Below are positions 1 through 464 of a DNA stretch of 464 bases, piece by piece; position 1 is the stretch's first letter; every line of letters starts with the position of its first letter. The position numbers and the translations under genes are program-made. The DNA is from Escherichia coli (GTDB lineage Bacteria > Pseudomonadota > Gammaproteobacteria > Enterobacterales > Enterobacteriaceae), in assembly GCF_003334355.1 (NCBI RefSeq), contig NZ_QOWP01000106.1. One strand, 5' to 3'. The notes below the pieces were generated by a model, which was not told where the DNA came from, did no database searches, and was given only the letters and a program-made list of their open reading frames with translations.

Positions 1-63
1 ATGACTGGGGTGAAGTCGTAACAAGGTAACCGTAGGGGAACCTGCGGTTGGATCACCTCCTTA
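1..63 (+). rRNA. rrs: 16S ribosomal RNA, 3'-terminal fragment (5' part lies upstream of the window)
   Basis: Seen in sequence: universally conserved 16S 3' end GTCGTAACAAGGTAACCGTAGGGGAACCTGCGGTTGGATCACCTCCTTA. The anti-Shine-Dalgarno core CCTCC is at 56-60 and the mature 3' end ...CCTTA is at 63. The helix-45 GGAA loop is at 37-40, with adjacent adenines 39-40 matching E. coli A1518/A1519. The 5' boundary is truncated by the window. Confidence 0.95.
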
Positions 64-131: not shown

Positions 132-208
<77 letters not shown>

Positions 209-250: not shown

Positions 251-326
251 GGGGCTATAGCTCAGCTGGGAGAGCGCCTGCTTTGCACGCAGGAGGTCTG
301 CGGTTCGATCCCGCATAGCTCCACCA
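251..326 (+). tRNA. alaT/alaU/alaV: tRNA-Ala, anticodon TGC (UGC), with encoded 3' CCA
   Basis: The acceptor stem is 251-257 (GGGGCTA) paired with 316-322 (TAGCTCC) and contains the G3-U70 wobble (G253-T320), the classical alanyl-tRNA synthetase identity element. The anticodon stem is CCTGC (277-281) / GCAGG (289-293), with loop TTTGCAC and anticodon TGC at 284-286. T loop TTCGATC, discriminator A323, CCA at 324-326. Confidence 0.97.
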
Positions 327-352
327 TCTCTGTAGTGATTAAATAAAAAATA

Positions 353-386
353 CTTCAGAGTGTACCTGCAAAGGTTCACTGCGAAG
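353..386 (+). promoter_or_regulatory. Imperfect stem-loop with GCAA tetraloop directly upstream of boxA; boxB-like element of the spacer antitermination region (tentative)
   Basis: Hand-folded. The outer stem pairs 353-356 (CTTC) with 383-386 (GAAG) and 359-362 (AGTG) with 377-380 (CACT), separated by a 2x2 mismatch. The inner stem pairs 364-367 (ACCT) with 372-375 (AGGT), closing the GNRA-type loop GCAA at 368-371. A hairpin followed by boxA is the arrangement in rrn leader and spacer regions. Confidence 0.4.
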
Positions 387-402: not shown

Positions 403-430
403 TCTGGATCAAGCTGAAAATTGAAACACT

Positions 431-448
431 GAACAACGAAAGTTGTTC
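431..448 (+). other. Perfect 7-bp hairpin with GAAA tetraloop in the distal spacer (probable precursor-rRNA structural or processing element)
   Basis: GAACAAC (431-437) is the exact reverse complement of GTTGTTC (442-448), closing a GNRA tetraloop GAAA at 438-441. A T430-G449 wobble could extend the stem. Function is not determinable from sequence. Confidence 0.3.
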
Positions 449-464
449 GTGAGTCTCTCAAATT

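Follow-up and report, generated by a model that had tools for sequence, protein, structure and literature searches.

The perfect inverted repeat at positions 431-448 of the Escherichia coli spacer analysed here is a real hairpin that is evolutionarily maintained. By computation, the hairpin exists and is stable, it is conserved in position among other Gammaproteobacteria with covariation in its stem, it folds better from the sense strand, and it belongs to an Rfam family: it is the central stem-loop of the catalogued StyR-44 RNA (RF01830), and thus an already known element rather than a new one. Selection favours the ability of this segment to pair with itself and not its sequence; arms, length and loop turn over between genera, and a stable hairpin remains. 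The hairpin is probably a local leader-leader helix, a structure-only arm of the pre-23S leader-trailer structure as modelled here, and a structural arm is the default reading of its role. The mildly new points are limited to the flanks. These are a distal pairing with the 23S-5S spacer, predicted to start right after boxA, and the conflict of this pairing with the outer helix drawn in Rfam.

The window, that is, the whole stretch of 464 nucleotides that was analysed, is an E. coli 16S-23S spacer of the tRNA-Ile/tRNA-Ala type and has 100% identity to the spacer of rrnH. Over the distal 138 nt the identity to E. coli spacers is 100%, with a median of 7 copies per genome (5425 of 5426 complete E. 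coli genomes); one match is the rrnH copy, which is flanked by gmhB and dkgB. The first-pass annotation had set the repeat in an Ile/Ala spacer. The window is indeed of that type, but the element is not limited to such spacers, as the median of 7 copies per E. coli genome indicates. The sequence TGCTCTTTAAAAA at 390-402 matches the boxA consensus and is the spacer boxA, the loading signal of the antitermination complex. In rrnH the 23S gene starts at window-equivalent position 510 and the hairpin core lies 79 to 62 nt upstream of it, so that the proposed placement between boxA and the 23S start is borne out. A second boxB-boxA-boxC set has been described upstream of 23S (PMC10250234). The boxB-like hairpin at 352-385, unlike the repeat at 431-448, occupies the nut-like boxB position of rrn operons. 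Features of the region are collected in the table. The motif UUGAAAC, which surrounds the linker before the hairpin, is kept throughout the Enterobacterales in the alignment, and GAGUCUCUC comes directly after the hairpin stem.

Features of the window and of the corresponding operon (locus L001), with window positions counted from the first letter of the 464-nt stretch
Feature	Window position	L001 position	Strand	Basis or remark
16S rRNA 3' end	1-63			Rfam
tRNA-Ile(GAT)	132-208			ARAGORN
tRNA-Ala(TGC)	251-326			ARAGORN
boxB-like hairpin, GCAA tetraloop (367-370) on ACCU/AGGU stem	352-385		+	fold of 327-464
Spacer boxA, TGCTCTTTAAAAA	390-402		+	upstream of 23S; sequence fits boxA consensus
Predicted 5' strand of distal leader-trailer helix	401-422		+	partner at L001 6721-6742, 23S-5S spacer
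GAAA linker, unpaired, between the predicted distal long-range helix and the hairpin	423-426		+	alignment, co-fold
Full hairpin, 10 bp, U430 bulged; 7-bp core 431-437/442-448, loop 438-441	427-451		+	fold, repeat, Rfam consensus
UCUCUCA, core of the AGUCUCUCAA box directly 3' of the hairpin	454-460		+	co-fold
3' strand of Rfam outer helix	461-467	3735-3741		
Trailer segment AUUUUCAGC		6722-6730		counterpart of leader 413-421

Other sequence features of the window were seen in passing. A perfect 9-bp inverted repeat, CAAATTTGC / ACG / GCAAATTTG, is present at 207-227 and outsizes the repeat at 431-448; it begins in the last bases of tRNA-Ile and sits between both tRNAs, a position that corresponds to that of the cyanobacterial V2 helix. 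An imperfect inverted repeat at 63-87, ACCTTAAAGAA / TTCTTTGAAGT, is 82% complementary and directly follows the 16S 3' end, where the spacer should supply the trailer strand of the 16S leader-trailer helix. Open reading frames of 21-66 codons with TTG or GTG starts are found, one of them antisense through tRNA-Ala; these were dismissed and the coding potential is taken as nil.

The arms GAACAAC and GTTGTTC are 100% complementary and enclose the 4-nt loop GAAA, and the exact inverted repeat that the first-pass annotation had described is present at 431-448 without deviation. RNA folding lengthens the stem to 10 bp by the pairs C429-G449, A428-U450 and C427-G451, which are added across the bulged U430. 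The 427-451 fold has an energy of -11.4 kcal/mol and a z of -3.8, and 0 of 200 shuffles are as stable. All folds are thermodynamic predictions. The seven core pairs have a probability of at least 0.995 in each of four folding contexts (the window; the whole spacer with 40 nt of 23S; the distal spacer with 300 nt of 23S; and a co-fold with the 23S trailer), and the three extension pairs reach 0.5-0.6 only. No competing partner for 431-448 was found, a point that had been raised as a possible objection; full-spacer folds retain the same pairing at a probability of at least 0.995. Of 5000 dinucleotide shuffles of the window, 3% contain a perfect 7-bp stem that closes a 4-nt loop, and 0.1% one that closes a GNRA loop, a loop class chosen after the loop of the hairpin had been seen. 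One sequence alone is weak evidence for the hairpin, and it is the comparison across genomes that provides evidence beyond chance.

Homologous loci were collected by searching a single genome of each species for boxA with AAGCTG after it. At least 120 loci were obtained, which span Enterobacterales, Vibrionales, Alteromonadales and their relatives, in an arbitrary taxon sample that holds no Salmonella or Klebsiella isolates. The anchors of the analysis were the conserved AAGCUGA box after boxA and a second conserved box of AGUYUCUCAA type, for which AGTTCTCAA was accepted too, and the segment between them was folded without alignment. Among the matches listed, 66 spacer variants from about 45 gammaproteobacterial genomes carry at the same spot a hairpin of unrelated sequence and variable length; the inter-box segment folds into a hairpin in nearly all complete variants, again among the matches listed, and the hairpin abuts the second box. 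This box reads AGUCUCUCAA in Enterobacterales, AGUUCUCAA in vibrios and AGUUUUCAA in Pseudoalteromonas. Stem length in the homologues ranges from 9 to 31 bp and z lies mostly between -3 and -8; from one genus to another the arms show no relation in sequence. Two hairpins occupy the site in some Shewanella and Photobacterium, and the hairpins of Citrobacter, Serratia and Yersinia contain nested inserted modules. In a few spacers with boxA and AAGCTG, the AGUYUCUCAA-type pattern is unmatched downstream: those of an Arsenophonus endosymbiont (L066), Zobellella (L043-L045) and Cognaticolwellia (L010). The Arsenophonus sequence beyond AAGCTGAAAAA looks unrelated.

Covariation is most readily seen in Photorhabdus and Xenorhabdus, where nine variants of equal length can be aligned. 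Pairing is kept in 95% of the cells of this alignment, 6 of 12 pairs are changed on both sides, and the covariation score is reached by 0 of 500 shuffles; slid registers of the same alignment are only 31-57% paired. The helix is thus kept by compensatory change in relatives, as well as in alleles of E. coli described below, which is the pattern that the first-pass annotation had put forward as support for a conserved helix. No consensus structure emerged from RNAalifold when all 25 Enterobacterales variants were aligned with MAFFT alone, because bulge positions and lengths differ between genera and an alignment by sequence only is out of register. In the alignment of the long Citrobacter-type hairpins two rows are one column off in the apical stem, and compensatory changes there were judged by eye.

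A separate observation concerns an apical module in some of the longer hairpins. Those of Citrobacter, Shimwellia and 'Escherichia sp. ESNIH1' (L030, L031, L033, L084, L086, L088, L089) have an extra apical stem with an invariant 8-nt loop, CCGUAAUA; the stem below this loop covaries (CUGUUCU/AGAACAG, CAUUUCU/AGAAAUG, CAUUCUU/AAGAAUG). Serratia and Yersinia share another conserved loop, UCCGUAGAUGUAUU, of which Rahnella has a close variant on a truncated contig (L021, L096, L079). A conserved loop atop a covarying stem hints at a sequence-specific partner. This conserved-loop module is absent from the E. coli hairpin.

The long-range setting of the hairpin was modelled by co-folding the leader, from boxA to position +12 of 23S, with the trailer, from the 23S end to 5S, in 12 species with a complete operon. 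The co-folds are broadly alike: the far end of the trailer is the partner of the leader stretch right after boxA, and the hairpin stands alone. In E. coli, AAUCUG (401-406), UCA (409-411) and GCUGAAAAUU (413-422) are predicted to pair with CAGAUU, UGA and GAUUUUCAGC, at pair probabilities of 0.96-1.0. Against shuffled trailers, z of the distal duplex lies between -4.4 and -8.9 in each of the 12 species. Compensatory changes are also found: Citrobacter pairs leader AUCAAG with trailer CUUGAU where Photorhabdus has AACAAG and CUUGUU, and the AAUCUGG/ACAGAUU of Enterobacterales is replaced by AAUUUGG/CCGAAUU in Vibrio. A distal helix that starts right after boxA is therefore a well supported prediction. 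On the 3' side of the hairpin, UCUCUCA pairs with the trailer sequence UGAGAGA (L001 6713-6719) in the Enterobacterales and Vibrio co-folds, and in the Pseudoalteromonas co-fold the corresponding box is partly absorbed into the base of the hairpin. The 7-bp UCUCUCA/UGAGAGA duplex is not significant against shuffled trailers (z from +1.0 to -2.5), and the middle helix that it would form, on which the three-way-junction model depends, is a weak prediction. The classical RNase III stem of pre-23S, which lies 3' of the hairpin region, is reproduced further 3' in the co-folds. On the trailer side in E. coli a single unpaired nucleotide separates the UGAGAGA and GAUUUUCAGC segments, and for this reason the hairpin is described as the third arm of the putative junction.

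In essentially all bacteria 16S and 23S are bracketed by leader-trailer helices, which subunit biogenesis requires in a manner independent of RNase III; variable leader-leader and trailer-trailer helices form part of the published models, and the 2024 study by Gemler et al. folded the whole leader from tRNA to 23S (PMC11404451). The E. coli 23S leader-trailer helix is given as about 30 bp (PMC8782170), and the distal helix is therefore a prediction of the present analysis. This additional helix would place the hairpin inside the leader-trailer structure and not, as with the published helix, outside it. The distal helix may be under-described in the literature, and the supplementary models of PMC11404451 may already show it. 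The earlier proposal of a precursor hairpin stands with respect to structure; the hairpin is predicted not to be free-standing, however, but to be an arm nested within the pairing of the leader with the 23S-5S spacer.

The predicted folds can be read as the following sequence of events. The polymerase would clear the spacer boxA and then transcribe 401-422, a 5' strand whose partner would appear about 3 kb later. The 25 nt of 427-451 have no complement in the trailer and would immediately form a hairpin of their own. Once the precursor is complete, the trailer strand would be near-continuous, and the hairpin would protrude as a third arm between two leader-trailer helices, with the RNase III stem further in. 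The part played by the hairpin is likely passive: it may sequester single-stranded leader from mispairing with waiting 5' strands or with nascent 23S, and may let the long-range helices lie side by side. This role against mispairing and at the junction is what we infer from the modelled folds.

A more active variant is unlikely. The hairpin and the strand 401-422 would together be a conserved module that keeps the pre-23S leader in a set geometry on the antitermination complex, such that the distal helix zips first when the trailer appears 3 kb later, or else the released StyR-44 fragment would itself be functional. The background for the first version comes from 16S, where boxC, a conserved box soon after boxA, supplies the 5' side of the leader-trailer helix and structure outweighs sequence; in the tethering model, the boxC strand stays close to the RNA exit channel, held there by a boxA bound to NusB/E, until the trailer emerges (PMC10250234). 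The assembled antitermination complex also boosts co-transcriptional formation of the long-range 16S helix (bioRxiv 10.64898/2026.03.17.712431). If such a module were present upstream of 23S, it would be the 23S counterpart of boxA-boxC tethering, and the size and stability of the hairpin, not its sequence, would tune 50S biogenesis.

RF01830 matches 394-464 on the plus strand with 81.5 bits (gathering score 54), from the first position of the model and truncated by the window end. The complete match reaches 124.9 bits and covers 3668-3776 of L001, equivalent to window positions 394-502. The central stem-loop of the consensus, <<<-<<<<<<<____>>>>>>>>>>, aligns on 427-451 and no non-canonical pair is flagged by cmscan; the consensus has 3 pairs, a 1-base bulge, 7 pairs and a 4-base loop, as does the 427-451 fold. 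The stem positions are in lower case, i.e., variable, in the consensus. The suggestion of the first-pass annotation that the hairpin is conserved precursor structure and nothing new agrees both with the compensatory changes in relatives and with the presence of the stem-loop in this consensus. The gathering score is reached in Escherichia, Enterobacter, Citrobacter, Shimwellia, Serratia and, barely, Xenorhabdus. It is not reached in Photorhabdus, Brenneria, Vibrio, Pseudoalteromonas and Shewanella, although their boxes and hairpin are arranged in the same way.

Pre-23S retains 7 extra nucleotides after the classical RNase III cut. The full StyR-44 match stops 8 nt before the annotated 23S start, and this predicted 3' end fits a cut at -7. 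By such a cut the hairpin would come to lie mid-way in a discarded 109-nt leader fragment, StyR-44, and it probably aids the transient persistence of the fragment and hence its visibility on Northern blots. The RNA, 109 nt long and found in all seven operons, was obtained by cloning from Salmonella Typhi; longer precursors give rise to it by processing, and the authors left room for its being a metastable intermediate of maturation (PMC2943607).

That the hairpin is instead a functional module of a trans-acting small RNA, StyR-44/sYJ118, with a regulatory job beyond rRNA maturation is judged very unlikely. Such a role would account for the discrete 109-nt Northern signal in S. Typhi and E. coli, which depends on growth phase (PMC2943607), and for the increase of the RNA under two drugs: 8-fold under tigecycline in Salmonella, with an increase in Klebsiella as well (PMC3511261), and strongly after carolacton in E. 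coli (PMC5615136), in each case without a function. Drugs directed at the ribosome are expected, however, to raise every pre-rRNA fragment, and the discovery papers allow for a mere processing by-product (PMC2943607; PMC3511261). The predicted 3' end lies exactly at the RNase III cut, no target is known, and the hairpin sequence is hypervariable between genera, which is unexpected for a seed or a target-pairing module.

The curated StyR-44 structure differs from the present folds in its outer helix, which pairs 416-422 with 461-467 (GAAAAUU with AAUUUUC). This helix has a probability of 0.001-0.002 in the leader alone and of 0 in the co-fold, and AAUUUUC is absent from the Photorhabdus and Xenorhabdus spacers; it was accordingly rejected as the main partner of 416-422. 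The outer helix competes with the better supported long-range pairing of 413-422 to the trailer. This suggests that the curated outer helix may need revision, and that it could be redrawn as a long-range pairing with the 23S-5S spacer.

An origin by chance or at the DNA level, in which the repeat would be a palindrome with no RNA role or a tolerated hot spot for palindromic insertions, is also given very little probability. A perfect 7-bp stem with a loop of 3-8 nt is common enough in shuffled sequence, as it occurs in 14% of the 5000 shuffles of the window, and the length range of 9 to 31 bp together with the nested modules of Citrobacter, Serratia and Yersinia resembles an insertion-tolerant site. 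The minus strand of the E. coli site can also fold into a hairpin, at -10.1 kcal/mol. The recurrence at the same site in about 45 genomes among the matches listed, with compensatory changes, argues against such an origin. Furthermore, 105 of 1020 predicted pairs across the 66 variants are G.U, and in 58 of 66 variants the sense strand gives the more stable fold of the two strands (Wilcoxon p = 3e-10), both among the matches listed. G.U pairs and this strong energy bias toward the plus strand point to selection on the rRNA-sense transcript and not on a DNA palindrome, and the recurrence of stable tetraloops (GAAA, UUCG, UACG, GCAA, GUAA) also speaks against the latter. A version of this explanation in which a tolerated insertion must pair with itself fits the structural-arm reading and is not a true rival to it.

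Loop identity was compared within Escherichia and between genera. In E. coli there is also another allele, GAAUAGUC-GAAA-GAUUAUUC, whose stem is paired throughout and which was found in 161 of 5432 records at 99% identity or more. It has 8 bp, GAATAGTC GAAA GATTATTC, is identical to the E. albertii sequence, and differs from the reference by one double change (C-G to U-A), one change of A-U to G.U and one inserted pair. Contigs from gut metagenomes carry a variant with a GAGA loop (6 contigs) and a C437T variant (2 contigs), in which C437U turns the closing pair into U.G. Pairing persists in all four Escherichia-type alleles, and their loop is always of the GNRA type (GAAA or GAGA). A stem-breaking substitution, which had been considered to be damaging to the case for the hairpin, was not found among the variants recovered, a small sample. 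The GNRA tetraloop of the first-pass annotation is therefore kept within Escherichia; outside that genus it is not a conserved feature. Among the matches listed, the genera together show about 40 apical loops, UUCG, UACG, GCUCA, ACCGA and UUUA among them, and GNRA loops are found there only in Escherichia and a few marine genera. Very stable tetraloops recur on unrelated hairpins: UUCG in four genera, UACG in three groups and GAAA in four genera, in addition to GCAA and GUAA. This suggests selection for a fast and stable fold and not for a recognition loop.

The same variation bears on the proposal that the hairpin is a boxB in the style of lambda nut, with a GNRA-type loop read by an antitermination or assembly factor. 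The core begins 28 nt past boxA (24 nt if counted from the base of the hairpin), the GAAA loop is of the appropriate type, as are the loops of all four Escherichia-type alleles, and lambda boxB takes a GNRA-like fold, at least as related in PMC10250234. The proposal is nevertheless extremely improbable, as the loop varies across genera (GCUCA, ACCGA, UUCG, UACG, UUUA and others), the rrn boxB is 5' of boxA (352-385 here; order in PMC10250234) whereas the hairpin is 3' of it, and E. coli is without N protein, boxA alone being enough for complex formation (PMC10250234). Hardly any likelihood attaches to a transcription signal (an intrinsic terminator or pause) or to a nuclease site for RNase III or RNase E, although the hairpin is stable and lies in a transcribed, heavily processed region, since no U-tract follows the stem, terminator and promoter scans of the region found nothing (0 terminator-like sites on both strands), its 10 bp are well short of the approximately 22 bp needed by RNase III (bioRxiv 10.64898/2026.03.17.712431), and the StyR-44 match, taken as a proxy for the fragment ends, runs from 394 to 502 with neither end at the hairpin.

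Little follows in practice: a stem-loop that Rfam had already curated is confirmed to be a real helix under selection. The architecture of boxA, conserved box, variable hairpin and conserved box reaches well past the genera that the Rfam model detects. If the distal helix after boxA is real, the tethering model, so far tested for 16S only, becomes testable for 23S.

Among known systems, the hairpin resembles the variable leader-leader helices of the pre-23S leader-trailer structure (Young and Steitz 1978; Liiv and Remme 1998; Gemler et al. 2024, PMC11404451). The hairpin is likewise local, the 5' leader is predicted to pair with the trailer, and structure outlasts sequence. With StyR-44 (Salmonella Typhi npcRNA 44; sYJ118) it shares the same stem-loop at the same site, upstream of 23S in all seven operons, and between the hairpin itself and the central stem-loop of StyR-44 there is no difference. 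In cyanobacteria the spacer domains follow the order Box-B helix, Box-A, D4 and V3 helix (PMC5658200), the same order as that of the boxB-like hairpin at 352-385, boxA, the AAGCUGA box and the variable hairpin. The V3 helix is a taxonomic marker without an assigned mechanism, and the analogy is one of position only. The likeness to the 16S boxC of Warner et al. (2023, PMC10250234) concerns the flanking strand 401-422 and not the hairpin, as an equivalent hairpin in the 16S leader between boxA and boxC is not described in that paper. By analogy, the strand 401-422 looks as if it is possibly the 23S counterpart of the 16S boxC.
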